From positions 95,056 through 159,055 of the forward strand of contig JACPUR010000035.1 of assembly GCA_016192135.1 (NCBI GenBank): a DNA stretch of 64,000 nt, given 5' to 3'. Below the pieces are notes generated by a model. That model was not told where the DNA came from, did not search any database, and worked only from the letters and a program-made list of their open reading frames with translations. The position numbers were made by a program, and so were the translations under genes. Each line of letters begins with the position of its first letter. Position 1 is the first letter of the stretch. This document shows, piece after piece, positions 3,337-63,643 of this stretch. The DNA is from Candidatus Tectimicrobiota bacterium. GTDB lineage: Bacteria > UBA8248.

Positions 3337-3432
3337 TCCCCTCACCCGGAGGGGAGGGCCAGGGTGGGGGAAGGATTTATAGCGCCGATAGATTCTCCCT
3401 CCCCCAGCCCCTTCCCGGAGGGAGGGGGAAAG
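3337..3432. repeat. GC-rich palindromic intergenic repeat, family 1 (CCCTCACCC...GGGAGGG type)
   Basis: CCCCTCACCCGGAGGGGAGGG ... CTCCCTCCCCCAGCCCCTTCCCGGAGGGAGGGGG. Same architecture as the copies at 45866, 49171, 54396, 56456 and 63529. Confidence 0.5.
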
Positions 3433-3451
3433 TCTCAGGCTGTGCGGCGGT

Positions 3452-3994
3452 TCAATTCAGCAGCGTCACGAGCTCCAGGAGCTGGCGCTTGAGAGTCTCC
3501 TCGTCCGCCGCCCGCCGGACGGCGCCGAGAATCTCGCTCGCGGCTTTCCCGTGCTCGCTGCGCTTCAGGTAGATGCGCGCGAGGTTCGTGTAGGGGAAGT
3601 GACGGGGATCATACCGAGGCGCCCGCTTTGCCTTCTCCAGCCACTCGATGGCCTGCTCCAGATCGCCCAACTGCATCAGATAGCAGCCGATGTCGTTGTA
3701 AGGATTCCCGAAATCGGGGTCGACCTCGATGGCGAGATGGCACTCCTCGATGGCCTCCTCGAGCCTGCCCTGCTTGCTGTACATCCAGCCCAGGTAGGTG
3801 TGGGCGTCCGCGGTGGGATGGTAGGCGAGAGAATTCTTGTACAGCTCGACCGCCCGATCGATTCTACCTCTCCGGTGCGCGCTTTCCGCCTCCGCCAGCA
3901 GCTCCAGGGCCTTTCTCAGCTCGGGATTCACCCGGGACTCTTCCCAGTATTTTTCCTCGAACGACATGGTAGGGAAGCTCTCTTGCATGGTCAC
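3452..3994 (-). CDS. tetratricopeptide (TPR) repeat protein
   Basis: Repeated A/Y/L TPR signature (AVELYKNSLAYHP, EAIEECHLAIEVDP, QAIEWLEKA). Confidence 0.6.
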   Translation of the reverse strand: MTMQESFPTMSFEEKYWEESRVNPELRKALELLAEAESAHRRGRIDRAVELYKNSLAYHPTADAHTYLGWMYSKQGRLEEAIEECHLAIEVDPDFGNPYNDIGCYLMQLGDLEQAIEWLEKAKRAPRYDPRHFPYTNLARIYLKRSEHGKAASEILGAVRRAADEETLKRQLLELVTLLN

Positions 3995-4169
3995 TGCCCT
4001 CCCTTGCGTCCGAAACCCGGCGGTGGATTTCAGACCTTATTCAATGTTAACGCGCCCGGCCCGGCTGTCAAGAAAGGCTCGTACGGGGAAGAGGGGGAGG
4101 GAAATCCCCGACCCAATGGAAAAAAAGCGCCCCAGCCGGACGGCCGGGGCGCCGCGCGCGTGAGCGCCT

Positions 4170-4652
4170 TCACTTTTTCGGGGGCGGCTTCCGGTATGTC
4201 CGGTGACAGCCTCCGCAGGTTCCCTGAACGTTCTTCAGGGCCGCCTCGGCGCCGTTCCTGTCGCCTGCCCGCAGGACCACCGCCAGCGAGGCGGCGGCGG
4301 TCCCGAGGTTCCTGGCCTTCTGATCGAAGTCCGCCTTGTTCTCCCAGATGACGGGGAGGGCGGTCGTCTGGCCCTCCAGGACTCTCTCCTTGAAAGCGTC
4401 AGGGATTCGCCGGGCCGATTGGGAAAGTGCATCAGCGGACTTGGCCGCGTCGGCGAGCCTGTTCTCCTTCATGGCCGCCTGAATGGCCCGGATGTTGCGC
4501 GGGTGGCTCTGCATCAGGTCCTTGCGGGCCTTCACCTGCGGATTCTCGTAGCCGATCAATTCGGCGAAGGAGAAGTCCTTCGTACATCCCGCGAGCAGCC
4601 CCACCGCCGCGACGAGGGCGGCGAGGGTGAAACCGGCACGCAGACTCTTCAT
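4170..4652 (-). CDS. cytochrome c' (class II c-type cytochrome) lipoprotein
   Basis: Start ATG 4652 with an AGGAG-like SD. Signal peptide plus lipobox (LLAGC). Single C-terminal heme site with the class-II tail (CGGCHRTYRKPPPKK). Helical, approx 160 aa. The longer ORF-track N-terminus is rejected. Confidence 0.65.
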   Translation of the reverse strand: MKSLRAGFTLAALVAAVGLLAGCTKDFSFAELIGYENPQVKARKDLMQSHPRNIRAIQAAMKENRLADAAKSADALSQSARRIPDAFKERVLEGQTTALPVIWENKADFDQKARNLGTAAASLAVVLRAGDRNGAEAALKNVQGTCGGCHRTYRKPPPKK

Positions 4653-4914
4653 CAGCCTTGATCTCCTCTGATATACGGGACAACGCGCGCCCCTGCCGGA
4701 GGCGTCCCGGCGGGGTGAAAAAGGCCGCGGCGGATGCGTGCTGGGTGCCGGAGTGAGAACACCCGGGCGCCGGAAAAAGTTCCGGGGCGGCCCCATTTCC
4801 GCTTGGCTGCCCGACGGAGAACGATTAAGATTTCCCATTCTTGCTTGCGGAAATGGCTTCGAGGCCGGCTCGCCGGCCGTGAGGCGCGCTTTCAATCGGA
4901 GCGGGAGGTCTCTC

Positions 4915-5790
4915 ATGTCCGACCCCAGGAGGGCGAAGTTCCGGGAGCTGCTCGGCCGGCGGGGGGTCACCCTCGTCCCGGGCGCGCACGACGCCCTCAC
5001 GGCCCGGCTCATCGAGGCCAAGGGCTTCGAGGCGGTCTATATGACCGGCGGGGGCACCTCCGTCGCCCTGACCGGCCTGCCGGACAACGGCCTGGTCACC
5101 GCCTCGGAGACGGTGATGAACGCGCGCTACATCGCGGATTCGGTTTCCATCCCCCTCATCGTAGACGCCGATACCGGCTACGGCAATGCCGTCAACGCGG
5201 TCCGCACCATCCGCGATCTGGACCGGGCCGGGGCCGCCTGCGTCCAGATCGAGGATCAGGTTTCGCCCAAGCGGTGCGGGCACCTTCCCGGGAAGGAAGT
5301 GGTGAGCCGCGCCGAGTTCGTCGGCAAGATCCGGGCCGTCGCCGATCACCGGCCCGACCCGGCGCTGGCGATCATGGCCCGCACCGACGCCCGGGCGACC
5401 TTCGGCTTCGAGGAGGCCGTAGTCCGGGGGAACGAGGCCCTGAAGGCGGGGGCCGACCTGGTGTTCATCGAGGCGCTCGAGTCGGCCGAGGAGTTCGCAG
5501 AGTACGCCCGCCGCTGCCCGGGACCCCTGCTCGCGAACATGACGGAGTTCGGGAAGACGCCCCTCATCCCGGCGGAGGAGTTCGGGCGGATGGGCTACCG
5601 CTTCGTGATCTTCCCCGCGAGCGCCCTGCGGGTCATGCTGCGCGCGGCGGCCGAGCTCCTCGACGAGATCCGGGAGAAGGGCACCCAAGCCGCGTACCTG
5701 GACCGGATGATGACCCGCGCGGAGCTGTACGACCTCATCGATTACGACGCCTATCACCGGATCGAAGCCCGCTACCTGCCCCGGGACTGA
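4915..5790 (+). CDS. isocitrate lyase/PEP mutase superfamily enzyme (2-methylisocitrate lyase / carboxyvinyl-carboxyphosphonate phosphorylmutase-like)
   Basis: ATG 4915 after GGGAGG. Family motifs (VPGAHDALTARL, PLIVDADTGYG, QIEDQVSPKRCGHLPGKE, ARTDA). Confidence 0.75.
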   Translation: MSDPRRAKFRELLGRRGVTLVPGAHDALTARLIEAKGFEAVYMTGGGTSVALTGLPDNGLVTASETVMNARYIADSVSIPLIVDADTGYGNAVNAVRTIRDLDRAGAACVQIEDQVSPKRCGHLPGKEVVSRAEFVGKIRAVADHRPDPALAIMARTDARATFGFEEAVVRGNEALKAGADLVFIEALESAEEFAEYARRCPGPLLANMTEFGKTPLIPAEEFGRMGYRFVIFPASALRVMLRAAAELLDEIREKGTQAAYLDRMMTRAELYDLIDYDAYHRIEARYLPRD

Positions 5791-5933
5791 TATCCCGCGG
5801 CCCGAATCCCGGCTTTCCTTCCCTCCGGTTTTCCGCCAAAATGCGGGCATTAAGCCCATGCACACGAAGGGAGAAGCTCCACCGGGAGGCAACCCATTCG
5901 CGTCCGGCTTTGCATCCATCCGAATGAGGAGAA

Positions 5934-7004
5934 ATGCCGATGAGGAATTCCTTGCTGAGTCTCGCCGCCGCGCTGGCGCTGGCGGCCGGCGCGGCGGCCC
6001 CGGCGGGCGCCGCCGTCTCGCCCGAGGAGGAGAAGCTCTACCGGGAGGCCAAGAAGGAAGGGGAGGTGGACTTCCGGGGGCCGACCGAGCGGACTTCCTT
6101 CATCAACGTCGCACGGGCATGGTCGAAGCGCTATCCCGACGTGAAGCTGAAGTATTCGCGCAACCCGACGGGGAGGCTCGTCAAGGCCATCGAGGCGGAA
6201 TTCCGGGCCGGAAAGCTCACCCACGAGGTGGTCCACGTCACCGACCCCGTGATCCTGGTCAAATGGAAGAAGCAAGGGAGGCTGCTCTCCTACAAGAGCC
6301 CCTACTATGCCGACTACGAGCCGCAGTACCTCGACAAAGACTTCACCTTCGCGGCCATGGGCGTCACCCCCATGCTCCCCCTCGTGAACAAGAAGTACGT
6401 CGAGAGCATCGGCATGAAGCCCGGCGACTTCAAGTGCTACAAGGACTTCCTAAACCCGAAATTCTCCGGCAAGCAGGTGGTCACCCACGCCAACGCCGGC
6501 GGGACCGCCCTTTTTGCCGCCATGCGAATGACCGAGCTCTTCGGCTGGGAGTTCCATGAAACCCTGCGTAAGCACAACATCCTGCTCGGGGCGACAGCGG
6601 GCGTGACCACGAGCATGGTCATCAAGGGCGAGCGGCCGGTGACCTACGCGGTGACGGGCTACCGCGCCCTGGAGCACGGGCAGGATCCCAAGAAGGGCGT
6701 GTTCACCTTCTGGCCCTGCGAGGGCGCGGTGATGATCAACTTCGCGATGACCATCCTCAAGGAGGGCGCCGCCAGGCATCCCAACGCCGCCAGGCTCCTG
6801 GTGACGTGGCTCTCCTCGAAGGAGGGCCAGGAGAACATCGTCGAGCACGCGCACTTCTTCAGCGGCCGCAAGGACGTGAAGCCGGTGCCCGGCGCCCAGC
6901 CGCTGCACACGTACAAGAACCTGTGGTGGCCCGACCTCGAGAAGGCCATCCAAGAGCACGATCCGTTCCTGAAGAAGTTTGATCAGGTGTACGGGCTGAA
7001 GTAG
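5934..7004 (+). CDS. ABC transporter periplasmic substrate-binding protein, Fe(III)/FbpA-AfuA-like
   Basis: Signal peptide (LALAAGAAAPAGAAVS). Binding-protein fold similar to iron(III)/thiamine SBPs. First gene of a 3-gene ABC operon. Confidence 0.7.
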   Translation: MPMRNSLLSLAAALALAAGAAAPAGAAVSPEEEKLYREAKKEGEVDFRGPTERTSFINVARAWSKRYPDVKLKYSRNPTGRLVKAIEAEFRAGKLTHEVVHVTDPVILVKWKKQGRLLSYKSPYYADYEPQYLDKDFTFAAMGVTPMLPLVNKKYVESIGMKPGDFKCYKDFLNPKFSGKQVVTHANAGGTALFAAMRMTELFGWEFHETLRKHNILLGATAGVTTSMVIKGERPVTYAVTGYRALEHGQDPKKGVFTFWPCEGAVMINFAMTILKEGAARHPNAARLLVTWLSSKEGQENIVEHAHFFSGRKDVKPVPGAQPLHTYKNLWWPDLEKAIQEHDPFLKKFDQVYGLK

Positions 7005-7071
7005 CTCCGGCCGCGCGCCGCCCCCGGCCTCCGCCGGGGGCGGCGGGGCGCCCAGGCAGGACGGAGGCTGC

Positions 7072-8871
7072 ATGGAGGCGATATCCGCCCCCGCGGGATG
7101 GCTGGCGGACCGGGCGGCCCAATGGAGAAACGAGCCCGGCAAGTTCGCCGCGATGGCGCTGACGGCCTCGTTCCTGGCCGCCCTCATCGCCTACCCCTTC
7201 CTGACCCTTTTCGTCATGAGCCTTCAGCACCCGGAGACGGGCGCCTGGACGATCTCAAGCTACGTCCGCATCTTCACCGAGGAGAGCTTCCGGGACGCGT
7301 TCATCCGCTCGATCTGGCTCAGCCTCATCGTCACCTTCTTCTCGCTCATTCTCGGCATCCCCATGGCCTTCGGGGTCTCGCGCACGCGGATGCCCTTCCG
7401 GGAGCTCGTGCGAAGCCTCACCGGCATCGCCTTCATCATCCCGAGCTTCATCGGGGCGGTGGGCTGGATCTTCCTGCTCGGGGAGAACCAGGGGGACATC
7501 AACCGCTTGGTGCGCTGGATCGTCAACCCCTTCCTGGCGGAGCCGATCGAGAGCGGCCCCTTCACGGTCTTCTCCTTCTGGGGTTTGGCCTTCGTCCTGG
7601 TCCTGCATTTTTTCCCGTTCGTCTTCTATTCCGTGAGCGCCTCGCTCGACAACATGGACCCCTCCTACGAGGAGGCGGGGAGCATGGTGGGGGCGGGGAG
7701 GCTCCTGACCGTGCTGCGGATCACCCTCCCCATGGCGGCCCCCGCCATCGTGTCGGGCGCCATCATGGTCTTCCTGGAGACGCTGGCGGCGTTCGGCGCC
7801 CCCCAGGTCATCGGCGTTCCCGCCCGGTTTCACGTTCTGACGACGCGCATCTACAACCTGTTCGAGCCGCCGCCGAACTTCGCCATGGCGACGGCGCTGG
7901 CCTCTCCGCTCATCGTCATCACGGCGGGGGCGCTGTGGCTTCAGCGGCGCATCCTGTCCCGGCGGCAGTACGTGACGGTGGGCGGCAAGGCCACCGCCCC
8001 CGCGCCCATGGACATCGGGCGGTGGCGCTACGTCCTGAGCGGGTTCTCCATGCTCGTGGTGTTCGTCTCGGTGGGGGCGCCGATGTACGCCATCTTCGCC
8101 ACCTCCGTGACGGAGGTGTGGGGGCGGCCGCTCTTCACCGGGCTCTTCCCGCCGGCCGCCGGCGGCTTCTCCTTGACGCACTACGAGCAGCTCTTCGACC
8201 CCGCCCTGGCCAACTGCGATCTTCCCGGCGGCTACATCGTCACCGAGGCCATATGCGCCGTCTACAACAGCATGTGGCTCTCGGCGGTGGCGGCCACCCT
8301 CATCCTCCTGCTGGCGGTGGTGTCGGCCTACATCGTCGAGCGCTCGGGAATCGATGGGAGGGGCGCGCTGACCGGCCTCATCATGATGACCTTCGCCTTC
8401 CCCTCCGTGGCGCTGGCCGTGGGGCTCTACGTGGGCTACCTGAGGCTCGAGTGGCTGCCCGTCTTCGGCACCATGATGATGTTCATCCTGGCCTACATCA
8501 CGCGCTACATCGCCTTCGCCTTCATTTTCGTGCGGAATACGATGAAGCAGGTGGGCCCCGAGATGGAGGAGGCGGGCCGCATGGTGGGGGCGGGGTGGAC
8601 GCGGACCACCTGGAGCATCTCGGTGCCCCTGCTCAAGAGCGGCCTGTGGATCGGCTGGACGCTCGTCTTCGCCGTCCTGCTCCGTGAGCTGCCCCTCACC
8701 ATCATGCTGAACGTCCAGGGGGCGCAGACCATGGCGGTGCGCATCCTGCTTTTCATCGAGGACGGCCTCCTCGAGCGCGCCGCCGCGATGTGCATCATCA
8801 TCATCGTGGCCTCGGTCGGGGCGACGTGGCTCGTCCGGAGGTTCGCCGGGAAATCCGTAATGGAGGTGTGA
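7072..8871 (+). CDS. ABC transporter permease with duplicated transmembrane domain (FbpB-like)
   Basis: Two BPD-type permease modules of approx 300 aa each. EAA-like loops. Many TM helices. Confidence 0.8.
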   Translation: MEAISAPAGWLADRAAQWRNEPGKFAAMALTASFLAALIAYPFLTLFVMSLQHPETGAWTISSYVRIFTEESFRDAFIRSIWLSLIVTFFSLILGIPMAFGVSRTRMPFRELVRSLTGIAFIIPSFIGAVGWIFLLGENQGDINRLVRWIVNPFLAEPIESGPFTVFSFWGLAFVLVLHFFPFVFYSVSASLDNMDPSYEEAGSMVGAGRLLTVLRITLPMAAPAIVSGAIMVFLETLAAFGAPQVIGVPARFHVLTTRIYNLFEPPPNFAMATALASPLIVITAGALWLQRRILSRRQYVTVGGKATAPAPMDIGRWRYVLSGFSMLVVFVSVGAPMYAIFATSVTEVWGRPLFTGLFPPAAGGFSLTHYEQLFDPALANCDLPGGYIVTEAICAVYNSMWLSAVAATLILLLAVVSAYIVERSGIDGRGALTGLIMMTFAFPSVALAVGLYVGYLRLEWLPVFGTMMMFILAYITRYIAFAFIFVRNTMKQVGPEMEEAGRMVGAGWTRTTWSISVPLLKSGLWIGWTLVFAVLLRELPLTIMLNVQGAQTMAVRILLFIEDGLLERAAAMCIIIIVASVGATWLVRRFAGKSVMEV

Positions 8872-8874
8872 CCG

Positions 8875-9939
8875 GTGTCCACGCTGGTCCTTCAGGGAGT
8901 GAGCAAGAGCTACGGCGAGGTCCGCGCGGTCCGCGACTTCAACCTCGAGGTGAAGTCCGGGGAGTCCGTGGTCTTCCTGGGGCCGAGCGGCTGCGGCAAG
9001 ACGACCACCCTCCGCATGATCGCGGGCTTCATCCAGCCGGACGCGGGCGAGATCCGCATGGACGGGGAGCTGGTCGCCTCCGCCCGCTTCTCCATGCCGC
9101 CCGACAGGCGCAGCTTCGCCATGGTGTTCCAGAACTACGCCGTCTGGCCCCATATGACCGTGGCCGAGAACCTCGCCTTCGGCCTCACGCTCCGCAAGCT
9201 CTCCAAGGCCGAGATCGGGCGGCGGGTGGGGCGCGCCCTGGAACTCGTCCAGATGAGCGCCCTGGGCGGCCGGCTGCCCAGCGCCCTCTCGGGCGGCCAG
9301 CAGCAGCGCGTGGCCCTGGCCCGCGCCCTTGTGCTCGAGCCCAAGCTCCTCCTCCTGGACGAGCCCCTCTCCAACCTCGACGCCACCCTGCGCGAGGAGA
9401 TGCGCTTCGAGATCAAGCACCTCCAGCGCCGGCTCGGCATCACGAGCATCTACGTCACCCACGACCAGGAAGAGGCCATGGTGGTCGGGGACCGCATCGT
9501 CGTCATGCGCCACGGCAAGGAGGAGCAGATCGGCTCGCCCGAGGACATCTACCGCCGCTCGGCCACCGAGTTCGTCGCCACCTTCGTCGGGCTCGCCAAC
9601 ACCCTCGAGGCCCGCGTCGCGGAAGGCGAGGGCCTGGTGGACGCGGGGCTGGGGGCGCCGCTCCGGGTGACGGGCCGGCCGGAAGGCCGGGCCGCCGGCG
9701 AGGCCATCCGGGTGGCCATCCGGCCCGAGGGCATCACCCTCAACCCCCCGGACGGCGGACCCAACTGCTTCGAGGCCTCAGTAAGCGAGCGCTACTTCCT
9801 CGGCGAGGTCCTGGACCTCCGCCTCCGCGTGGGCTCCCGCACGCTGCGCGCCCGGGTGCGGAGCGTGGCGGCCGTCAGCGAAGGAGACGCGGTCCGCATC
9901 CACATCAACCCCGAGCTGTGCCAGGTGTTGGGGGGGTAG
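8875..9939 (+). CDS. ABC transporter ATP-binding protein (FbpC/PotA-like)
   Basis: GTG start after GGAGGTG. Walker A (GPSGCGKTT), signature (LSGGQQQRVALARAL), Walker B (LLLDEP), C-terminal TOBE-like domain. Confidence 0.85.
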   Translation: MSTLVLQGVSKSYGEVRAVRDFNLEVKSGESVVFLGPSGCGKTTTLRMIAGFIQPDAGEIRMDGELVASARFSMPPDRRSFAMVFQNYAVWPHMTVAENLAFGLTLRKLSKAEIGRRVGRALELVQMSALGGRLPSALSGGQQQRVALARALVLEPKLLLLDEPLSNLDATLREEMRFEIKHLQRRLGITSIYVTHDQEEAMVVGDRIVVMRHGKEEQIGSPEDIYRRSATEFVATFVGLANTLEARVAEGEGLVDAGLGAPLRVTGRPEGRAAGEAIRVAIRPEGITLNPPDGGPNCFEASVSERYFLGEVLDLRLRVGSRTLRARVRSVAAVSEGDAVRIHINPELCQVLGG

Positions 9940-10041
9940 GGAGGGACCGCTGGAAGGAAATGGGCTTCGCCGCCGCGCCGCTCTACCTGCACTTCAACCG
10001 GGCGCTGATTTCGGCGGGGAGGGTTTCGTAGGGATTCGCGT

Positions 10042-10469: not shown

Positions 10470-10543
10470 GGCCGCAGTCCCCTTCTTGGCAAGCCTAACT
10501 TTTTTTATTCTACCGCAATTCCAGGCGGGACAGGGGTTGCGAT

Positions 10544-12534: not shown

Positions 12535-12542
12535 GGCCGGGC

Positions 12543-15831: not shown

Positions 15832-15836
15832 ACGCC

Positions 15837-21787: not shown

Positions 21788-21845
21788 AATTCTTCTCCTT
21801 AAAATTGAACAGTGCGGATGTGACGGGGGGTCGCCTTTCATCCGC

Positions 21846-21873
21846 AGGGGCGGTTCGCGAACCGCCCCTGCGC
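21846..21873. repeat. REP family 2 unit (GCAGGGGCGGTTCGCGAACCGCCCCTGC)
   Basis: Perfect 28-nt palindrome. Same unit at 27311 and 29842. Confidence 0.5.
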
Positions 21874-27270: not shown

Positions 27271-27340
27271 AGGGGCGACCGGCCGGTCGCCCCTACAGAC
27301 GTGAAGAGCCATTGATTTCCTGTAGGGGCGGTTCGTGAAC
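27271..27340. repeat. REP family 2 doublet (GTAGGGGCG...CGCCCCTAC x2)
   Basis: TAGGGGCGACCGGCCGGTCGCCCCTAC and GTAGGGGCGGTTCGTGAACCGCCCCTAC, between convergent genes. Confidence 0.55.
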
Positions 27341-27363
27341 CGCCCCTACTTCTTTCGCTTGCC

Positions 27364-29741: not shown

Positions 29742-29841
29742 GGGGGGCTCCACCTTTTCGCAAATCGGGCGATAGGGCCGAGGGAGACTGCCTCCGGCGC
29801 GCCGGGGCGCCTTACTCGCAGGGGTGCATCCGCCGATTTCC

Positions 29842-29870
29842 CGCAGGGGCGGTTCGCGAACCGCCCCTCC
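29842..29870. repeat. REP family 2 unit inside the E1beta-E2 intercistronic region
   Basis: GCAGGGGCGGTTCGCGAACCGCCCCTCC. Confidence 0.5.
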
Positions 29871-29926
29871 GAAAAGCGCCTCGCGCCTCGCGTGCGCCCG
29901 TTTGCCCGCCGCCCGGCCATGCGCCG

Positions 29927-45329: not shown

Positions 45330-45960
45330 TCCCACGGCCGGCCTCCTTGTCCCCCCCCTTTGGAACACCCCCCCTTGCCAAGGGGGGCAGGGGGGGTAGC
45401 AGGAGGGGGAGGTAAAGGGGGGCGAGCGGTTTACAGCCCCCGCCCCGGGGCGCCTTCCCCCTGCCCAATCCCGAATCTAGGCTCCACCGGGAGAAAGCCC
45501 GTTACCGCAAATCGCGCCAATTTCGCGCACCTTCATGCATGGGGGGTTTTTCGATACCCCCCATCGCGCCTTTGCCGGGTCCAGGCGGACCCGGCCCTTC
45601 CCCCAAGGGGGGCGGCGCATCCTCCGCCCCCTGTTTTCCCGGGTCCCCAAACCGGCCTGCCGGTTTGGGAGGAGGGGGGGAGGTATTGGGGGGGTGGTGC
45701 TGGGTGAAAAGGGATGCGCCCGGCCCCCGAATGACGGATAATGGAGTGCACAAAAGCTCAAAAAAATGCTCATTTTTTGCGTGAATTTGGGGGAAAACGG
45801 CGCGTTTTTTCCAAATTCGGCCCCGTTTTTGTGCCAGCGAGGCAGGGCATGGGCGCCCTACGTTTTTCCCTCTCCCTCCGGGAGAGGGTAGGGTGAGGGC
45901 GCGGACGGGGGCATTCCCTCACCCCGGCCCTCTCCCAAGGGGAGAGGGGGAAGGACCAAC
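45330..45960. repeat. non-coding region dense in hairpins, homopolymer C/G tracts and REP-family-1 units
   Basis: C8 and C7 runs at 45351-45374. G-run clusters at 45382-45422 and 45666-45704. Perfect hairpins (ATGGGGGG..CCCCCCAT, CCAAACCGG-CCTG-CCGGTTTGG). Family-1 unit at 45866-45952. No credible ORF. Confidence 0.45.
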
Positions 45961-48064: not shown

Positions 48065-49144
48065 ATGCGCGAGCGGGTGGTGGTGGCGATGAGCGGGGGG
48101 GTGGACAGCTCGGTGGCGGCCGCCCTGCTGGTGGAGCGGGGCTACGAGGTGGTGGGGGTGGGGCTGCGCCTGGCGGACCGGCTGCCGGGGGAGGCGGAGT
48201 CCTTCCACCGGGGCTGCTGCGCCCCGCGCGACCTGGCCGACGCGCGGGCGGTGGCGGCGCGGCTGGGCTTCCCCTTCTACGCGATGGACGCGCGGGAGGC
48301 CTTCCGGGGGGCGGTGGTGGAGGGCTTCGCGGAGGCCTACCTCCGGGGCCGCACCCCGAACCCCTGCGTGGACTGCAACCAGGAGGTGAAGTTCCACCAC
48401 CTGGCGGAGCGGGCGCGGGCGCTGGGGGCGGGGCGGCTGGCGACGGGCCACTACGCCCGGCGGGTCACGGCCGGGGGGCGGCTCACCCTGGCCCGGAGCG
48501 CGGACCGGGCGAAGGACCAGACGTATTTCCTCTTCGGGCTGACCCAGGCCCAGCTCGCCCTCGCGATGTTCCCGCTGGGGGATATGGAGAAGCGCCAGGT
48601 GCGGGAGGCGGCGCGGCGGCTGGGCCTCCCGAACGCGGAGAAGCCCGAGAGCCAGGAGATCTGCTTCGTGCCGGAGGGGGACTACCGGCGCTTCCTGGAC
48701 CGGGAGCGGCCGGGCTGGCGCCGGGCGGGGCGCATCGTGGACGGCGACGGGAACGTGCTCGGCGCGCACGAGGGCGTCGCCGAGTTCACGGTGGGCCAGC
48801 GGCGGGGGCTCGGGCTCGGGGGCGGGGAGCCGCGCTTCGTGGTGCGGCTCGATTCGGACACGGCGACGGTGGTGGCCGGGCGGCGGGAGGAGCTCCACCG
48901 GGAGCGCTTCCTCGTGGAGAGGGTGCGGTGGTCGCTGCCCATCGGGCGGGAGGGGCGGCGGCTCCTCGTCCAGGTGCGCCACCGGCAGCGGCCCGTCCCC
49001 TGCCTCGTGCGGCCCCGGCCGGGGCGGGCGGCCGAGGTCGTGCCCGAGGACCCTCCGGCCCTGGGCGCGGTGGCCCCGGGCCAGGCGGCCGTCTTCTACG
49101 AGGGGGAGGTGCTCCAGGGCGGGGGATGGGTGGCGGGGGAGTGA
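48065..49144 (+). CDS. mnmA: tRNA-specific 2-thiouridylase MnmA
   Basis: (VVVAMSGGVDSSVAA) PP-loop. Catalytic Cys motifs (PNPCVDCN). C-terminal domain. Confidence 0.85.
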   Translation: MRERVVVAMSGGVDSSVAAALLVERGYEVVGVGLRLADRLPGEAESFHRGCCAPRDLADARAVAARLGFPFYAMDAREAFRGAVVEGFAEAYLRGRTPNPCVDCNQEVKFHHLAERARALGAGRLATGHYARRVTAGGRLTLARSADRAKDQTYFLFGLTQAQLALAMFPLGDMEKRQVREAARRLGLPNAEKPESQEICFVPEGDYRRFLDRERPGWRRAGRIVDGDGNVLGAHEGVAEFTVGQRRGLGLGGGEPRFVVRLDSDTATVVAGRREELHRERFLVERVRWSLPIGREGRRLLVQVRHRQRPVPCLVRPRPGRAAEVVPEDPPALGAVAPGQAAVFYEGEVLQGGGWVAGE

Positions 49145-49170
49145 GGAATCCTCGCCTGCCAGGATTTAGG

Positions 49171-49258
49171 TTCCCTCCCCCTCCGGGGGAGGGTAGGGTG
49201 AGGGGAAAATCCACGGAGGTGCTTCCCTCACCCCAGCCCTCTCCCATAGGGAGAGGGA
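49171..49258. repeat. REP/MITE family 1 unit
   Basis: CCCTCCCCCTCCGGGGGAGGGTAGGGTGAGGGG ... CCCTCACCCCAGCCCTCTCCCATAGGGAGAGGGAG. Confidence 0.5.
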
Positions 49259-49358
49259 GAAAAGCGGGGCCGCGCGTATTGCCATATGCCCCCGCGGGCG
49301 GCGGGGCCGGGCGGGGGACCGAGGGTCCTCCCGCCGGCCGAGAGGGGAGAAAAACTTC

Positions 49359-50162
49359 ATGCCCATAGCGCGGGTCCCAGGCGGGCCGGACATCCACTAC
49401 GAGGTGCGCGGCGAGGGCCCGCCCCTTCTCCTCGTGAGCGGGACGGGCCACGATCACACCTTCTGGTCGGGCCAGTTTCCCCTCTTCGAGCCCGGGTTCC
49501 GCGTCATCGTCTTCGACAACCGGGGGGTGGGGAGGAGCGGCGTGCCCCCGCCGGGCTACGCCCTGGCCGACATGGCCGACGACGCGGCCCGCGTGCTGGA
49601 CGCCGCGGGCGCCGGGCGCGCCCACGTCATGGGCTTCTCCATGGGAGGCCACATCTCCCAGGAGCTCTGCCTCCGCCATCCCGGCCGGGTGCGCAGCCTG
49701 GGGCTGCACCACACCTGGAGCCGGAACTGCGCCCGCCTGCGGTCCTTCCAGGCGGCCCGCAAGCGCCTCGCCGGGCGGGGGGAGCGGGAGGCGCTCGTCG
49801 AGATGAGCCTCCTCGGGCTCTATTCGCACGAGTACTGGGACGCCCACCCCGCCGAGATGGAGAAGAAGAGGAAGTGGCTGATCGAGGCGTCGCCGGCGGA
49901 CGCGGGCTGGATCGGCCAGCTCGAGGCCTGCCTCGCGGGCGACACCCTGGAGCGGCTGGGCGGGATCCGGGTGCCCACCCTGATCACCGCCTCGACGCAC
50001 GACTTGATCGTGGGGACCCACGAGGCGGAGGAGATCCACCGGCGCATCCCGGGCTCCCGGCTCGTCATCATGGAGGGGACGGGGCACGTCGCCCTCCTCG
50101 AGCGGCCGGAGGCTTTCGGGCGCATCTGCCTCGGCTTCCTCCGCGAGGTGGGGGATGCGTGA
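49359..50162 (+). CDS. alpha/beta hydrolase fold protein
   Basis: (GFSMGG) nucleophile elbow. Asp and His downstream. Confidence 0.75.
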   Translation: MPIARVPGGPDIHYEVRGEGPPLLLVSGTGHDHTFWSGQFPLFEPGFRVIVFDNRGVGRSGVPPPGYALADMADDAARVLDAAGAGRAHVMGFSMGGHISQELCLRHPGRVRSLGLHHTWSRNCARLRSFQAARKRLAGRGEREALVEMSLLGLYSHEYWDAHPAEMEKKRKWLIEASPADAGWIGQLEACLAGDTLERLGGIRVPTLITASTHDLIVGTHEAEEIHRRIPGSRLVIMEGTGHVALLERPEAFGRICLGFLREVGDA

Positions 50163-52144: not shown

Positions 52145-52147
52145 GGC

Positions 52148-53943: not shown

Positions 53944-53971
53944 CGGCCGTCATGGAAGGAGATGGAAGCTG

Positions 53972-54352
53972 ATGGAGCGGAGATTCCGCGGCGGGCGCCG
54001 CCTCAGGGCCACCGCCCTGGCCCTCGCGCTGGCCCTCCTGCCGGGGGCGCTCGCCGGCTGCGCCTGGTGGGACAAGAACGTGGGCAAGAGGGTCGACAAC
54101 TTCATGACCCGGCGCCTCCTCATCGTCACCGACCCGCCGGACGCCGACGTGTACGTGAACAACGTCCCGCAGGGGAAGACCCCCCTGACCCTGACCTACC
54201 GGGTCAGCGTCGGCGACTTCATGAAGGGCTTCGTGGTCGTGGTGCAGAAGGAGGGCTACCTCCCCCTCCGCCGGGAGGTGGACTACAAGACCGAGTCCAT
54301 CCAGCTCAAGCTCATCCGCCAGCAGCCCCAGCGGGGGCCCGCCGGCAATTGA
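53972..54352 (+). CDS. PEGA-domain lipoprotein
   Basis: AGGAG SD. Lipobox (LAGC). (LLIVTDPPDADVYVNNVPQGKTPL) PEGA-like. Confidence 0.5.
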   Translation: MERRFRGGRRLRATALALALALLPGALAGCAWWDKNVGKRVDNFMTRRLLIVTDPPDADVYVNNVPQGKTPLTLTYRVSVGDFMKGFVVVVQKEGYLPLRREVDYKTESIQLKLIRQQPQRGPAGN

Positions 54353-54395
54353 GCAGTGGGTCAATTTGGCCTTTTCCCCGTTTCGCGCGGCCACG

Positions 54396-54552
54396 TTTCC
54401 CTCACCCCCATCCCCTCTCCGCCCTCTCGAACCGGCAGGCCGGTTCGGGGACCCGAAAAGACGGGGAGAGGGGCGCCGATGCCGCAAAAGCCGATGCCCC
54501 GGATGAAGGGGCCGCTTCTCCCTCTCCCTCCGGGAGAGGGCCGGGGTGAGGG
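54396..54552. repeat. REP/MITE family 1 composite
   Basis: CCCTCACCCCCATCCCCTCTCC ... CGAACCGGCAGGCCGGTTCG ... CCCTCTCCCTCCGGGAGAGGGCCGGGGTGAGGGAG. Confidence 0.5.
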
Positions 54553-54708
54553 AGAGCCGGGGGCGGGGGCGCAATCGAAGGCATCGTTGTCTGTCTTGTA
54601 AGCTGACCGGCAATTGACAATTTTCCAATGGGTTGGTAGAAGACTCCCCTTTCCCGGGGACCCAGGACGGCCCGGGGCCAACGGCGCAACGGGCGGGAGA
54701 GCCTTGTT

Positions 54709-55023: not shown

Positions 55024-55039
55024 GGGGCGGGAGTGATCC

Positions 55040-56376
<1,337 letters not shown>

Positions 56377-56455
56377 TGGTGGGCCGGCTTGCCCTTCACC
56401 CCGCGCCTCCTCTGCCGGCCCTTGTGCGTCAAGGAACCGTATGCCTAGCTGTTTT

Positions 56456-56552
56456 TCCCTCCCCCTCCGAGGGAGGGTAGGGAGGGGGGAAAAGGCTCGC
56501 GGCGGCTTTCATTCTCCCTCCCCCCTGCCCCCCTCTCGGAGGGAGGGGGGAA
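56456..56552. repeat. REP/MITE family 1 unit
   Basis: CCCTCCCCCTCCGAGGGAGGGTAGGGAGGGGGG ... CTCCCTCCCCCCTGCCCCCCTCTCGGAGGGAGGGGGG. Confidence 0.5.
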
Positions 56553-56639
56553 AACGCGGTTGCTCTCCTGGAGGGAACGCCGCGCTCGGAACGACGGCGG
56601 AATTGCCGGGTTGATCCGTTATCGGAGGGCTGAGCCGCT

Positions 56640-57788: not shown

Positions 57789-57815
57789 GGGCGGCCCGCC
57801 GCCAGCGGAGGGCAA

Positions 57816-58869: not shown

Positions 58870-58894
58870 AGCCCTGCCGAAACGGGAGGCACAT

Positions 58895-59263
58895 GTGAAG
58901 CACCTGACGAAAGAGCAGATCGAGATTCTCAAGCGGAGGCTCCTGGAGGTCCGCCGCGAGATTCTGGGGGATGTCGAGAAGAGCAAGCGCCACAGCAAGG
59001 AGACCGGCGACGACGGGACGCAGGACATCGCCGACATGGCCGCCGACACCTACTCCCGCCAAGTGCTGATGGACCTCGGCGAGCGCGAGCGCGAGCGCCT
59101 GCGCGAGGTGGACGCCGCCTTCAAGCGGATCGATGACGGGAGCTACGGCCTCTGCGAGGAGACGGACGAGCCCATCCCCTTCTCGCGGCTGGAGGCCATC
59201 CCGTACACGCGCTACACGGTCACGGCCCAGAACGAGATCGAGCGCCGGAGCAAGGGGGCATGA
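58895..59263 (+). CDS. DksA/TraR-family protein lacking the C4 zinc-finger cysteines
   Basis: GTG after GGGAGG. Coiled-coil plus (DGSYGLCEETDEPIPFSRLEAIPYTRYTVTAQ). Canonical CxxC...CxxC is replaced by one Cys and T/A. Confidence 0.55.
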   Translation: MKHLTKEQIEILKRRLLEVRREILGDVEKSKRHSKETGDDGTQDIADMAADTYSRQVLMDLGERERERLREVDAAFKRIDDGSYGLCEETDEPIPFSRLEAIPYTRYTVTAQNEIERRSKGA

Positions 59264-59282
59264 GCCCCGGCCGGGGGAGCCC

Positions 59283-60578
59283 ATGAAGCTGCGCCAGTTC
59301 GTCGCCCTCGCGATCCCCCTCCTGCTGGCGCTCTACCTCCTCCACTACAACCGCGAGTTCGCCGTCCTCCGCTTCTCCGACCAATTCTCCGTCCGGCTCC
59401 CCCTGGCGATGCTGCTCCTCGGCTCCGCCCTCATCGGGGCGCTCGTCGCCGCCGTGCTCGGATGGGGCGCTGCGGCCGTCAAGGCGGTCTCGGCGTGGCG
59501 GGAGCGCCGCGAGACCCGGCGGAAGGAGCGCGCCCGGGAAGCCCTCGCGCGGGCCCAGGCCCACCGGAGCCGGGGCAGGCGCCGGCGGGCGCTGCGGCTG
59601 GCCCGCAGGGCCATCCGCCTGGACCCGCGCCTTCCCTCGGCGCTCGCCCTGGCCGCGGACCTGGCCGCCGAGTCCGGGAACCTGGACGAGGCCATCCGCT
59701 GGAACTCCCGGCTGCAGGCCCTGTGGCCGGACTCGCCGGACGCCGCCCTCCGGCTCTCGGAGAACCTGGAGGCCCTGGGCCGGAAGGCGGAGGCGGAGCG
59801 GATGCTGACCCGCTCGGAGGGGAACGGGAAGGGCCATCCGGCCGTCGTCCGCAGGCTGCGCGACCTCCTCGCCGAGTCGGGCCGGTGGGAGGAGGCGGTT
59901 CAGGCCGCGGAGAGGCTCTACCGCATGGAGGGGAAGGCCAGCGAGGAGGACGCCCGGCGGACCGCGGAAATCTACCTCGCCGCGGCGGAGGGCAGGCTCG
60001 CCCGGCCGGACGCCTGGGGGGCCGTCTCCCTGCTGGAGGAGGCGGTCCGGCGGTGCCCGGCCTCGCGCGAGCCGCGCCTGCGCCTCGGGGACGCCTACCT
60101 GGCGGCGGGCAAGCCCAAGCGGGCGGTCCGGGCCTGGGAGGCGGGTTACCGGGAGGTGAAGGGTGTCGAGTTCCTCCGCCGGATCGTGGGGGCCCACGCC
60201 CCGCTGGATTCGGAGAGCGCCCTGCGCCAGGCCGCCTCCCATCTCGTTTCCATGGCCGATTCCCGGTGCGGCGACCCGGCCCCCTGGATGATGGCCTCCG
60301 CCCTTCTGATGGAGGCGGGCCGGACGGGCGAGGCCGTCCGCTGGCTCGAGGAGGCGGCCGCCTGCATCCCCGCCGCGGCGGGGGGGGAGACCGGCTGGCT
60401 GGGCCTGGCGGTCCGGCTGATGGAGGCGCGCGCCAAGCTCGAGGCGGGCGACCGGCTGGCCGCCGAGAACGACTTCCGGCGGGTGGCCCAGGAGGCGGGA
60501 TGGTTCCTGCTGGGCGAGACGCCCTCGGGTGCCATCGTCAAGCGGTTCGAGGCCGTCGCCCCGAGGGGCTTCGCGTGA
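59283..60578 (+). CDS. membrane-anchored TPR-like protein (LapB/HemY-N-like architecture)
   Basis: Two N-terminal TM helices. Helical TPR-like repeats. The upstream ORF-track extension is rejected. Confidence 0.5.
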   Translation: MKLRQFVALAIPLLLALYLLHYNREFAVLRFSDQFSVRLPLAMLLLGSALIGALVAAVLGWGAAAVKAVSAWRERRETRRKERAREALARAQAHRSRGRRRRALRLARRAIRLDPRLPSALALAADLAAESGNLDEAIRWNSRLQALWPDSPDAALRLSENLEALGRKAEAERMLTRSEGNGKGHPAVVRRLRDLLAESGRWEEAVQAAERLYRMEGKASEEDARRTAEIYLAAAEGRLARPDAWGAVSLLEEAVRRCPASREPRLRLGDAYLAAGKPKRAVRAWEAGYREVKGVEFLRRIVGAHAPLDSESALRQAASHLVSMADSRCGDPAPWMMASALLMEAGRTGEAVRWLEEAAACIPAAAGGETGWLGLAVRLMEARAKLEAGDRLAAENDFRRVAQEAGWFLLGETPSGAIVKRFEAVAPRGFA

Positions 60579-61084
60579 GAGGCGCCCAGGGGGTCTTGGG
60601 CCGGAGGGAGGCCGGGTCCGTCCTCGTGGGCGCGCTCCTGCTGGCAGCCCTTCTGGTGGGCGGCATGGGCGGGGACGCCCTCTCGGCCCGGCCGGAATGC
60701 CCCCGCGGCACGACCGCCGTCGAGGACGTGGCCACGGGCGCCGTGAGGTGCGAGCGGGAGGACTCCCTCGACACCCGTGAGGCGGGCCCTGCGCCGCTTC
60801 CTCCGGCCGAGCCGCCGCCGGCGCCCGCCGCGCCGGAGTCCCCGGGGGCTCCCGCCGCGCCGGGCGCGCCTCAGGCCCCGCGCCGGATTCCGGGCGCTCA
60901 GGCCGACTGCGGGCTCGCCCGGTGGGGCTGCGAGGAGGCGTGCGGCCGCAAGCATCTCGCGGAGTCGCAGGCGCCGGGCTCCGCCGCGGCCCAGCGCGCC
61001 GCGGTGGCCTACGGCGCCTGCCTGAGGGTGTGCGGCCAGGAGTTCCAGTGCGAGCCTCGCCTGCCGGAGACGCCCATCCGGTAG
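60575..61084 (+). CDS. hypothetical secreted Cys-rich, Pro/Ala-rich protein
   Basis: GTG overlapping the upstream stop (GTGA). Signal-like (LVGALLLAALLVGG). 8 Cys in the C-terminal 60 aa. Confidence 0.3.
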   Translation: MRGAQGVLGRREAGSVLVGALLLAALLVGGMGGDALSARPECPRGTTAVEDVATGAVRCEREDSLDTREAGPAPLPPAEPPPAPAAPESPGAPAAPGAPQAPRRIPGAQADCGLARWGCEEACGRKHLAESQAPGSAAAQRAAVAYGACLRVCGQEFQCEPRLPETPIR

Positions 61085-61193
61085 GCCAAGCGCGCGCTGT
61101 GCTTGACTTTGCGGGGCGTCCCGAATAGGGTATCCGCCACACGCTGCCCATCCTCCGGCGCGGGACGATCCGCCCCCCGCGGGAGCCCTCGAG

Positions 61194-61652
61194 ATGAAGC
61201 CCATCGCCCTCGCGTCGGACCATGCCGGCTTCCAGGCCAAGGAAGCCGTGAAGGCGGTCCTGCGCGAGCTGGGCATCCCCTTCCGCGACTACGGCACGCA
61301 CAGCGAGGACTCTTGCGACTATCCCGACTTCGCCGCCCAGGCGGCCCGGGCGGTGAGCGAGGGGGAGTCGGAGCGGGCCATCCTCGCCTGCGGGTCCGGC
61401 ACCGGGATGGCCATGGTCGCCAACAAGTTCCCCGGCGTGCGGGCCGCGGCCTGCCACGACGAGTGGTGCGCCCGGATGAGCCGCATGCACAACGACGCGA
61501 ACGTGCTGGCCCTGGGGGGCCGCGTCCTCGGCGCGGAGGCGGTCCAGCAGATGGTCCGTCTCTGGCTGGACACGCCCTTCGAGGGCGGGCGCCATTCGCG
61601 CCGCGTCGCGAAGATCGCCGACTTGGAGCGCTGTCACGAAGCCAAGCCCTGA
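61194..61652 (+). CDS. rpiB: ribose-5-phosphate isomerase B (RpiB/LacAB family)
   Basis: (IALASDHAGF ... ILACGSGTGMAMVANK) motifs. Confidence 0.8.
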   Translation: MKPIALASDHAGFQAKEAVKAVLRELGIPFRDYGTHSEDSCDYPDFAAQAARAVSEGESERAILACGSGTGMAMVANKFPGVRAAACHDEWCARMSRMHNDANVLALGGRVLGAEAVQQMVRLWLDTPFEGGRHSRRVAKIADLERCHEAKP

Positions 61653-61676
61653 ACCGACCGCCCCGGACGGTTCCGC

Positions 61677-62144
61677 ATGAAATGCCCGATCTGCTCGCAT
61701 CCGGATAGCCGGGTCGTCGACAGCAGGATGACGAAGGAAGGCAACGCCATCCGCCGCAGGAGAGAGTGCGAGTCCTGCGGCCACCGCTTCACCACCTACG
61801 AGCGCCCCGAAGTCTCGTTTCCCCTGATCATCAAAAAGGATGGCAGCCGCGTCCCCTACGAGCGCGAGAAGATCCGCGCCGGGATCGCGAAGGCCCTGGA
61901 GAAGCGCCCGGTCCCGGCCGAGGAGCAGGAGGCCATCGTGGACCGGGTGGAGCGCTTCATCCTGGACGCCGGCGAGAAGGAGGTCACGACCTCCGCCATC
62001 GGGGAGAAGGTGATGGAGGAGCTGCGCGAGACCGATCAGGTCGCCTACGTGCGCTTCGCCTCGGTCTACCGCTCCTTCGGCGCCGTGCGGGACTTCGAGG
62101 AAGAGCTCCAGCGCCTCACGGGCAAGAAAGAGCGCCAGGCCTGA
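61677..62144 (+). CDS. nrdR: transcriptional repressor NrdR
   Basis: ([17 protein letters not shown]...[12 protein letters not shown]) zinc ribbon plus ATP-cone. Confidence 0.85.
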
Positions 62145-62174
62145 GCTTCATCCCCCCCTTTCCCGGGGGGAGCC

Positions 62175-63386
62175 TCATTCGCTGAGCGTCTCGCCCTCGG
62201 GCTCGCGGCCTTCGTGGGACGCGCCCGAGGCGAAGAGGCGCCCGATCTCCTCCGGCGAGAAGCCGGCCTCCTCCAGCACCTCCCTCGAATGCTGGCCCAG
62301 CCCGGGCGCGGGCCGGAGCCGCCTGGGCCCGGCGCCCGGGAACCGGGCGGGGAGCCTGAGCGCGGGGTGGGTCCCGCCGGCCGGGTGAGGGGGCTCGATC
62401 ACCAGGTCGCGGGCTTGCACCTGGGGGTGGCTGAAAACCTCCTCCACCTCCAGCACCGGGCTGACGCACACCTCCTCGCCCTCGAAGAGGGCGAGCCACT
62501 CCTCCAGGGCCCGCTTCCGGAAGGTGTCCTCCAGGGCGGCGATCACCCCCCGCCGGCGCTCCCCCCTCGCCGAGAGATCCCCCTCGAACTCCTCCCGGCC
62601 GATGAGGCGGCAGAGGTTCTTCCAGAACTTGGGCTCCGAGCAGGCGAGGGCGAGCCAGCGGCCGTCCGCCGTGGGGTAGAGGCGGTAGCCGGGGCGGCGG
62701 CCGTTGTGGCGCGTGGTCTCTCTCCCTCCCGGGGTGCCGCACGAGAGGAAGTACTGGGCGTGGTGGGCCAGGAAGCCCACCGCCGTGTCCAGCATGGCCA
62801 CGTCGATGAACTGCCCCCGCCCGGTCCGCTCCGCCTGGCGCAGGGCCGCCACGACGGAGAAGGCGGCCCACATCCCCGAGCCGAGGTCGGCGAAGGGGGT
62901 GCCCGGGATGTAGGGCGGCCCCCCCGCGGGGCCGGTGAGCCCGACCGTCCCTCCCATCGCCTCGAAGTTCAGGTCGTGCCCGGGCGCCTGGGCGAGGGGG
63001 CCGTCCTGGCCGTAGCCGGTGATGGCGCAATAGACGAGCCGGGGGTTCTCCCGGGAGAGCCGGGCGTAGCCCACCCCCAGGCGGTCGAGGACTCCGGGCC
63101 GGAAGCTCTCGACGAGGACATGGGCTCCCTTCACCAGGCGGAAGAGGGCGTCCACCCCCTCCGGGCGCTTGAGGTCGAGGGCCAGGCTGCGCTTGTTGAG
63201 GTTGCAGTAGAGGTGGAAGGCGGAGGCGCCCCGGACGTCCAGGGGGGCCGCCATGCGCCCGTAGTCGCCCCGGACGGGGTCCTCCACCTTCACGACGTCG
63301 GCCCCGAGGTGGGCGAGCATGAGGGTGCATTGCCCGCCGGGAAGGAGCCGGGTCAGGTCGAGCACCCGCACGCCGGAGAGCGGCAT
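62175..63386 (-). CDS. CaiB/BaiF family (type III) CoA-transferase
   Basis: ATG 63386 after GGAGGA. (VRVLDLTRLLPGGQCTLMLAHLGADV) N-terminus and conserved Asp region. Confidence 0.8.
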   Translation of the reverse strand: MPLSGVRVLDLTRLLPGGQCTLMLAHLGADVVKVEDPVRGDYGRMAAPLDVRGASAFHLYCNLNKRSLALDLKRPEGVDALFRLVKGAHVLVESFRPGVLDRLGVGYARLSRENPRLVYCAITGYGQDGPLAQAPGHDLNFEAMGGTVGLTGPAGGPPYIPGTPFADLGSGMWAAFSVVAALRQAERTGRGQFIDVAMLDTAVGFLAHHAQYFLSCGTPGGRETTRHNGRRPGYRLYPTADGRWLALACSEPKFWKNLCRLIGREEFEGDLSARGERRRGVIAALEDTFRKRALEEWLALFEGEEVCVSPVLEVEEVFSHPQVQARDLVIEPPHPAGGTHPALRLPARFPGAGPRRLRPAPGLGQHSREVLEEAGFSPEEIGRLFASGASHEGREPEGETLSE

Positions 63387-63528
63387 CGGGAGTCCTCCGA
63401 AATAAGATGCGGTACGGGCGCGAACGGCCCCAGCCGTAGCATCCGGGCGGGGAAAGATCAATCTTTAGGGCGGCAGAGGCCGCGCCCGTGTGCGGGAGCC
63501 CCTTCGCCTCCCGCCTCCGCTGGGACCT

Positions 63529-63643
63529 TCCCCTCACCCCGGCCCTCTCCCAGAGGGAGAGGGAGGAATGACCATTTCATACGCCGACAGCTTTGGCGGC
63601 CCCGGCGCCCCTCTCCCCTTGGGAGAGGGGAGGGGGTGAGGGA
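63529..63643. repeat. REP/MITE family 1 composite
   Basis: CCCCTCACCCCGGCCCTCTCCCAGAGGGAGAGGGAGG ... CCCCTCTCCCCTTGGGAGAGGGGAGGGGGTGAGGG. Confidence 0.5.

Follow-up and report, generated by a model that had tools for sequence, protein, structure and literature searches.

Short repeats of the BoxC family have been known since the 1990s. Earlier names of the element are BoxC and PIT (Hoyne & Maher 2000 and 2002, cited in PMC4666352). Holder et al. (2015, PMC4666352) defined the element, as TM_ECO, by the pattern 5'-CCCTCNCCC N3-6 GGGNGAGGG N3 GGGNGAGGG and tabulated 23 copies from E. coli K-12, and Kaplan et al. (2016, PMC5100583) described it under the name HPGQ as a G-quadruplex/hairpin switch. 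According to Holder et al., the family (3610 copies over 262 proteobacterial genomes) is always intergenic and without strand bias, its copy number is very uneven among close relatives, its linkers are of type A (TTA) or type B (CCG), inverted pairs always consist of an A and a B unit, and the element forms a stable intrastrand purine-motif triplex in vitro, as seen by circular dichroism (CD) and nuclear magnetic resonance (NMR). Here we describe repeats found in a 64-kb stretch of contig JACPUR010000035.1 from an uncultured Candidatus Tectimicrobiota bacterium; the whole stretch is called the window in the following, and unit coordinates are given in its numbering. Judged by their bases, the window repeats are copies of the E. 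coli BoxC/PIT/TM_ECO/HPGQ element, i.e. of a family that is already known. We consider it likely that they are non-autonomous copy-and-paste repeats that fold into a triplex, were recently gained in this lineage, are mobilised in trans and have no dedicated role at the neighbouring genes.

The G-rich strand of the unit reads YY-CCCTCTCCC-N3-6-GGGAGAGGG-YYR-GGGTGAGGG over about 35 nt and carries no gene of its own. The units match the published pattern base for base and therefore belong to the known family, not to a new one. The 23 tabulated K-12 copies fit both the TM_ECO pattern and the window unit, and 13 E. coli copies have one common mismatch. Seven window units follow the TM_ECO pattern with a linker of 2-4 nt, and two units have a 2-nt TA linker in place of 3 nt. 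The linker classes in the window are TA on the one hand and CCG or CTG on the other, and mixed pairs are of the kinds TA+CCG and TA+CTG. Mixed pairs also prevail across genomes (16 mixed vs 5 same-type, 50% mixed expected, p 0.012), but this excess was not reproduced in the viral set (4 mixed vs 6 same-type).

A covariance model, built from 100 units of other organisms' genomes and then run on the window, recovered 11 full-length units, spread over 6 intergenic loci and scoring 21-59 bits (E between 5e-15 and 2e-4; Table 1); the top match inside a gene had 14 bits (E 0.025). The first-pass annotation of this DNA had listed near-identical structured units at 3337-3432, 45866-45952, 49171-49258, 54396-54552, 56456-56552 and 63529-63643, and the blocks it described are present at all six. 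The degenerate form that it saw within 45590-45690 is a degenerate inverted copy, hardly visible to the covariance model alone, which gives weak matches there (matching stretch 45624-45683). The enrichment it implied is also real: GGGAGAGGG occurs 15 times in the window vs 3.8 +/- 2.0 times in shuffles and GGGTGAGGG 11 times vs 1.6 +/- 1.3, none of 100 shuffles reached either count, and the shuffles together with the cross-genome scan rule out chance or an artefact of GC composition. Every unit lies outside the called genes (calls from a 99% identical contig and Pfam); intergenic DNA makes up about 13% of the window where it is annotated. Orientation is mixed, with six units on the plus and five on the minus strand, i.e. 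no strand bias, and inverted pairs are present in both arrangements. As had been proposed, the repeats thus behave like REP, BIME or MITE (miniature inverted-repeat transposable element) sequences in being structured, dispersed, strictly intergenic and often in inverted pairs. An Rfam scan of the window gave no family reaching its gathering score.

The evidence on the fold comes from covariation. Hairpins were picked by the pyrimidine arm and its perfect complement only, and the third block was inspected afterwards; a fuzzy-regex covariation scan was discarded for register shifts and replaced by this hairpin-selected one. In non-consensus hairpins the third block is altered at the same index as the pyrimidine arm (C to G, T to A or T). 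One covarying variant, CCTTCTCCC / GGGAGAAGG / GGATGAGGG, is found at 8 loci, and further ones are CCTTCCCCC / GGGGGAAGG / GGATGGGGG; CCCCCTTCC / GGAAGGGGG / GGGGGATGG; CCTCCTCCC / GGGAGGAGG / GGTGGAGGG; CTCTCTCCC / GGGAGAGAG / GAGAGAGGG; TCCTCTCCC / GGGAGAGGA / AGGTGAGGG; and CCCTCTCCT / AGGAGAGGG / GGGAGAGGT. Leaving out three register artefacts, we grouped these hairpins ourselves into 10 variant types; of their 15 changed positions, all 15 are matched by a triad-compatible change in mirror register. A count by single cells gives 27 covarying positions and 10 with an incompatible base; the 10 fall mostly on triad position 6, and three of these cells come from the register artefacts. By the sequence rule, 9 of the 11 window units have 9/9 triads, and the three divergent ones (56510-56555, 56451-56494 and 3391-3434) do so in the mirror register only. 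Position 6 repeatedly accepts a non-canonical combination, in which a third-strand A goes with a C:G or G.A pair (49172-49204; L003 and L326; the E. coli 'A mm' copies), and all other triad positions covary.

A mirror register is what an antiparallel third strand requires, and the mirror relation would come neither from a direct- or inverted-repeat protein site nor from Watson-Crick pairing. The first-pass picture joined a short hairpin to a longer stem with a GGGTGAGGG arm. As read from these variants, that block serves as third strand in an intrastrand triplex, and a stem arm is not its main role. Applied to the three blocks, the sequence rule predicts that they can adopt an antiparallel purine-motif triplex (G*G:C, A*A:T, T*A:T). 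The words 'covariation' and 'compensatory' are absent from Holder et al. (PMC4666352), and we did not find the three-way covariation, or the pair described next, in the literature examined, relative to which both are new.

A second covariation links the base 2 nt 5' of the hairpin (position -2) with the last linker base. In 228 distinct consensus units from genomes (L001-L120) and viral contigs (L211-L330) the combination is C-G in 133 cases, T-A in 74 and something else in 21. The mutual information is 0.69 bit, whereas the null reaches 0.055 at most and every other pair of columns stays at or below 0.2. The association holds in the genome and viral sets separately (p 2e-26 and 2e-23); a pair-count check gave CG 49, UA 39 and other 11. 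The published A and B types are thus two states of one covarying pair. Going by these columns, the element reaches 2 nt further 5' than described, and its true extent is 35 nt. The enzymes of IS200/IS605 use guide and cleavage-site contacts, and the -2/linker pair could be a recognition contact like these or a lone capping pair.

The distribution of the element is broad. The exact 27-base core, with loop and linker left free, is present in at least 120 species of 36-73% GC (596 Gb scanned), where by our arithmetic uniform base composition predicts well under one match. Among the matches listed are Planctomycetota, Chloroflexota, Verrucomicrobiota, Myxococcota, Cyanobacteria, Bacteroidota, Omnitrophota and alpha-, beta- and gamma-Proteobacteria. 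The core is also present in at least 120 IMG/VR contigs, one of them with tail-collar, DUF4815 and Dam methylase genes, which makes it plausible that phages carry the element; host flanks may, however, be part of some of the viral contigs. One IMG/VR contig with phage tail genes (L259) has an exact copy at 3583-3615 inside a 1007-aa open reading frame (ORF; 1575-4598, minus strand) without a Pfam match; either this ORF is spurious or the copy is a rare one in a coding region.

The window was compared with contigs from 99% identical strains (L122, L123), with four syntenic contigs of 80-88% identity that jointly cover window positions 40048-60550 (L124-L127), and with more distant ones (L128-L135). 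The best named homologues of the window Obg are in metagenome-assembled genomes of Nitrospinota (84% and 70% identity), from which we take the host to be probably a relative of this phylum. The contigs from the 99% identical strains have the same copies in the same places, whereas no motif was found in the about 150 kb of L124-L135. At the sites of the window copies, the relatives have little or no corresponding intergenic DNA: L124 and L125 have a PEGA-rplU spacer of 91-110 bp vs 355 bp in the window, obg and proB overlap in these two relatives and are 262 bp apart in the window, and L126 is also short of about 263 nt at this place. For the livF-PrpD intergenic region the alignment with L126 was too divergent to give insertion borders. 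The outgroups do not have the element, so that a gain in the window's lineage is the simpler reading, and the comparison places this gain after the split from the 80-88% identical relatives and before the split from the 99% identical strains. The recent expansion suggested in the first-pass annotation is borne out by these absences.

Two inserts of about 250 nt could be delimited. They are accompanied by perfect 11-bp direct repeats, CCGGCAATTGA at 54342-54352 and 54607-54617 and CGGAGGGCTGA at 56366-56376 and 56623-56633, each ending in the stop codon TGA of the upstream gene. In each insert one copy is the gene end and the other overlaps the ribosome-binding site or the conserved TTGACA (-35) of the rplU promoter, so selection may explain why the repeats are perfect. 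Possible target-site duplications are confined to these two inserts, as no flanking direct repeats of at least 11 bp were found at the other window loci; a G-rich 10-mer at 49117/49309 is probably due to chance. The arrangement typical of a MITE, i.e. terminal inverted repeats inside a target-site duplication of fixed length, was not seen. The left junction at 56377-56405 resembles a decayed proB 5' end, which suggests a longer original duplication. In E. coli, filled alleles of the hrpB-mrcB region carry a B+A pair of about 112 nt that replaces 10 unrelated nt of the empty alleles. At the same locus strain N5D43 (L208) differs from K-12 (L206) by a deletion in which the B unit has kept its pyrimidine arm and the A unit its purine arm; the two are fused into one hybrid hairpin, showing a route by which pairs decay.

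These repeats are most likely selfish, non-autonomous copy-and-paste elements recognised as folded single-stranded DNA. The covariation and the published CD and NMR data show that a single G-rich strand forms a 9-bp hairpin and that the third block lies antiparallel on the purine arm of the hairpin, the triads giving an intrastrand triplex. The comparison with relatives shows that copies entered intergenic DNA, including the junction of the formerly overlapping obg and proB. The element would spread by copy-and-paste with an enzyme supplied in trans that would read the folded single-stranded form. Phages or other vectors would move the element between phyla, and the copies would have no dedicated role at the adjoining genes.

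Several points weigh against this copy-and-paste reading. The mobilising enzyme was not found, the multi-copy loci L008, L018, L057 and L059 bracketing only housekeeping genes. The two 250-nt inserts have only the repeat units in common, their filler is unrelated, and neither terminal inverted repeats nor common ends were found on them; slippage deletions in the relatives could just as well have left the 11-bp repeats. No target-site duplication was found at the filled/empty pair of E. coli hrpB-mrcB. Variants spread by transfer could inflate the number of independent covariation events, and in vivo dimethyl sulfate footprinting gave no triplex signal in E. coli (PMC4666352).

More tentatively, the family may be a mobile repeat that spreads horizontally throughout the bacteria, has an intrastrand DNA triplex as its unit of selection and is copied into intergenic sites by an enzyme acting on single-stranded DNA. 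If this is true, the three-way covariation and the -2/linker pair would be the first evolutionary evidence of a DNA triple helix that is recognised in living cells. The mirror-register covariation, the -2/linker pair and the recent lineage-specific invasion with empty sites in close relatives are three new handles on the family. Together they indicate that the folded single strand is the object that selection or the copying machinery sees, they define the 35-nt extent of the element, and they point to a search for the enzyme by matching gene content with copy number across genomes.

Among the alternatives, the one that survives best is that the repeats are a REP/REPIN family and that a RAYT (Y1 HUH transposase), with its gene at another place in the genome, mobilises them; even this appears unlikely to us. 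It would fit the inverted pairs, the strictly intergenic position, the amplification in one lineage and the need for a folded single strand. The likeness of the -2/linker contact to those of IS200/IS605 speaks for it as well, and so do the GTAG-REP pairs that relatives have in the very same intergenic spots. However, a conserved GTAG/CTAC head is absent: neither GTAG nor CGTC stands 5' of the palindrome, the 5' flank being YY preceded by variable bases, and in two units a GTAG that spans the TA linker is fortuitous. The core described here is identical across phyla, whereas a REP sequence is confined to one species or genus. No RAYT or Y1 transposase domain was detected among about 20 scanned window ORFs or beside the multi-copy loci, in a search that was not exhaustive.

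Quite unlikely, in our view, is a switch that regulates the neighbouring genes (HPGQ, Kaplan et al. 2016), in which the four GGG tracts of GGGAGAGGG-NNN-GGGTGAGGG form a K+ quadruplex alternating with the hairpin. The consensus is indeed a textbook G3N3G3N3G3N3G3, the isolated G-rich part gives a K+-dependent CD quadruplex signal (PMC5100583), and for K. pneumoniae this very sequence has been listed as a quadruplex. Selection nevertheless does not maintain the four tracts of three or more G that the consensus has, since several covarying variants break the GGG tracts needed by a three-tetrad quadruplex: GGGAGAAGG-GGATGAGGG, GGAAGGGGG-GGGGGATGG and GAGAGAGGG destroy G-tracts and keep all triads. 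The variants follow the mirror rules of a triplex and not those of a direct repeat, which favours the triplex over the quadruplex, and NMR of the full element gave a triplex and no quadruplex (PMC4666352). Moreover, there is no fixed distance or orientation to genes in the window or in E. coli.

The first-pass annotation had also suggested that the repeats act as intrinsic terminators or transcriptional insulators between operons, which we find very unlikely. The hairpins of the window loci are stable (-9 to -40 kcal/mol) and 5 of 7 loci follow a gene 3' end, but the hairpin has its T-run on the 5' side and an A-rich tail on the 3' side, so that neither strand reads a GC-rich hairpin and then a U-tract. 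A scan gave 10 terminator-like sites vs 7.9 expected, and none of them is a unit hairpin with its tail. One pair lies between obg and proB, and as these overlap in relatives proB presumably still depends on read-through; another pair is in a divergent promoter region. PIT elements were inactive as promoter or terminator in E. coli, according to Hoyne & Maher (2002) as cited in PMC4666352. The sole terminator-like site that adjoins a unit is a small hairpin with a T-run at 45844-45864.

Hardly credible, finally, is the speculation of Holder et al. (2015, PMC4666352) that such repeats are host-selected hotspots of recombination or mutation making useful variation: motif-carrying E. coli loci were more rearranged than control loci in that study and deletions between two hairpins do occur (e.g. 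strain N5D43), but any palindrome is expected to be unstable without selection having to be invoked, the three repeat loci shared with the 99% identical strain are all intact, and hypervariability was rejected with 6 of 369 nt (1.6%) differing from that strain in repeat regions vs 33 of 1543 nt (2.1%) in other intergenic DNA (Fisher p 0.68).

Table 1. Repeat units and insert segments in the window.
Feature	Start	End	Strand	Evidence and remarks
Degenerate triplex-motif unit, left half of inverted pair, convergent cupin-TPR gap	3333	3376	+	30.2 bits, E 6e-7; stems not parsed by simple triad parser
Variant unit CCCCCTCCC tcc GGGAAGGGG ct GGGGGAGGG	3391	3434	-	27.0 bits; triads 9/9 mirror vs 6/9 direct-repeat rule
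Degenerate copy of subfamily with inner loop hairpin AAACCGGCCTGCCGGTTT	45600	45695	+	60-nt inverted match, 77% complementary, to 54412-54471
Type-A-like unit tt CCCTCTCCC tcc GGGAGAGGG ta GGGTGAGGG	45862	45905	+	46.0 bits, E 2e-11; 9/9 triads
Type-B unit, linker CCG; inverted A+B pair with 45862-45905, livF-like ABC ATPase/PrpD-like gap	45910	45954	-	57.4 bits; pair 45862-45954 -31.4 kcal/mol, z -4.0
Type-A-like unit, compensated hairpin variant CCCTCCCCC/GGGGGAGGG, third strand unchanged	49167	49210	+	45.7 bits; 8/9 triads
Type-B unit, linker CTG, partner of 49167-49210; between mnmA and alpha/beta-hydrolase gene	49219	49263	-	58.8 bits; pair z -4.7
Segment missing in L124 and L125	54353	54617		Alignment and direct-repeat search; holds right copy of 11-bp repeat CCGGCAATTGA
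Unit with ~40-nt loop insertion holding its own hairpin AACCGGCAGGCCGGTT	54396	54475	-	Sequence, fold, inverted match to 45624-45683; weak model matches at 54393-54439 and 54448-54478
Type-B unit, linker CCG, between PEGA gene and rplU promoter	54514	54558	+	58.8 bits, E 5e-15
Segment missing in relatives with obg-proB overlap	56377	56633		Alignments and direct-repeat search; holds right copy of 11-bp repeat CGGAGGGCTGA
Variant unit CCCTCCCCC tcc GAGGGAGGG ta GGGAGGGGG	56451	56494	+	21.4 bits, E 2e-4; 9/9 triads vs 6/9 direct-repeat rule
Variant unit CCCCCCTCC ctccg AGAGGGGGG ca GGGGGGAGG	56510	56555	-	27.1 bits; 9/9 triads vs 6/9; purine arm mirrored by third strand; pair z -3.6
Type-B unit, linker CCG, divergent CoA-transferase/enolase region	63525	63569	-	57.8 bits
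Atypical-linker unit, partner of 63525-63569, third strands outward	63602	63648	+	37.9 bits; pair -40.3 kcal/mol, z -5.4

The loci are flanked by cupin and TPR genes (convergent), livF-like ABC ATPase and PrpD-like genes, mnmA and an alpha/beta-hydrolase gene, PEGA and rplU, obg and proB, and CoA-transferase and enolase genes (divergent). They had been described as lying after certain genes, and they are intergenic everywhere, but the repeats at 63529-63643 precede the start of the CoA-transferase gene and lie in the divergent promoter region between it and enolase. The loop insertion common to 54396-54475 and 45600-45695 is a peculiarity of a subfamily within this genome; like the mismatch common to 13 E. 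coli copies, it speaks for copying of units within a genome. Between the degenerate copy 45600-45695 and the intact pair 45862-45954 there is an AT-rich stretch (45720-45840) with A and T runs. The alpha/beta-hydrolase gene (49359-50162) beside the locus at 49167-49263, which the window shares with the 99% identical strain, is missing in L126 and L127, which have a HIT-family gene directly after mnmA. Compared with L122, the window has at 62162-62172 an 11-nt indel, CCCGGGGGGAG, with clustered substitutions, in a short spacer before the CoA-transferase gene end.

Other repeats are present in the same set of sequences. GTAG-type REP palindromes (GTAGGGGCGGTTCGYGAACCGCCCCT), called family 2 in the first-pass annotation, are found in the window at 21836-21872, 27314-27347 and 29835-29871; the triplex-motif units have no GTAG-type palindrome and are distinct from them, as had been stated. 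L126 has similar GTAG-REP pairs at about 5070-5400 and 9005-9100. In the window these two spots, behind livF and behind mnmA, hold triplex-motif pairs, i.e. the same gaps are occupied by different repeat families in sister lineages.

It is instructive to set the window repeats beside described systems. Like MITEs (Correia/NEMIS, ERIC, RUP), they are small, non-coding intergenic insertions that are polymorphic between close relatives, and two have flanking direct repeats. Unlike MITEs, the window inserts have no terminal inverted repeats beside these direct repeats and share only the internal 35-nt units, and we know of no parent insertion sequence for the BoxC-type element. With REP, BIME and REPIN sequences they have in common that they are short, structured, intergenic, non-autonomous, arranged as inverted doublets and expanded in particular lineages, and that they are probably handled as folded single-stranded DNA. 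The differences are the missing GTAG head, the conservation of the core across phyla and a third G-rich block that has no REP counterpart; moreover, no linked RAYT was found among the scanned ORFs. H-DNA and mirror-repeat tracts resemble the element in their purine and pyrimidine blocks, mirror symmetry and purine-motif triad rules. However, the BoxC-type element is a dispersed family of conserved sequence and not a simple-sequence tract, and its triplex draws all three strands (hairpin and third strand) from one DNA strand, so that the fold needs single-stranded DNA and not a supercoiled duplex.

The closest system is BoxC/PIT/TM_ECO/HPGQ itself, and as a finding in this genome the repeats are ordinary, the bacterium being one more host of a decades-old repeat family. 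The three 9-nt blocks are identical, the loop is free, the linkers fall into TTA-like and CCG/CTG-like classes, and the mixed-type inverted pairs, the strictly intergenic position, the absence of strand bias and the variable number between close relatives are the same. The window differs from the published catalogue in that its host is uncultured, has 69% GC and stands outside the 262 catalogued proteobacterial genomes. It differs from E. coli in that two insertions have 11-bp flanking direct repeats, with none at the one E. coli locus checked, that the A-type linker is TA (2 nt) and not TTA, that both pair arrangements are present, and that a local subfamily carries a hairpin inserted in the loop.

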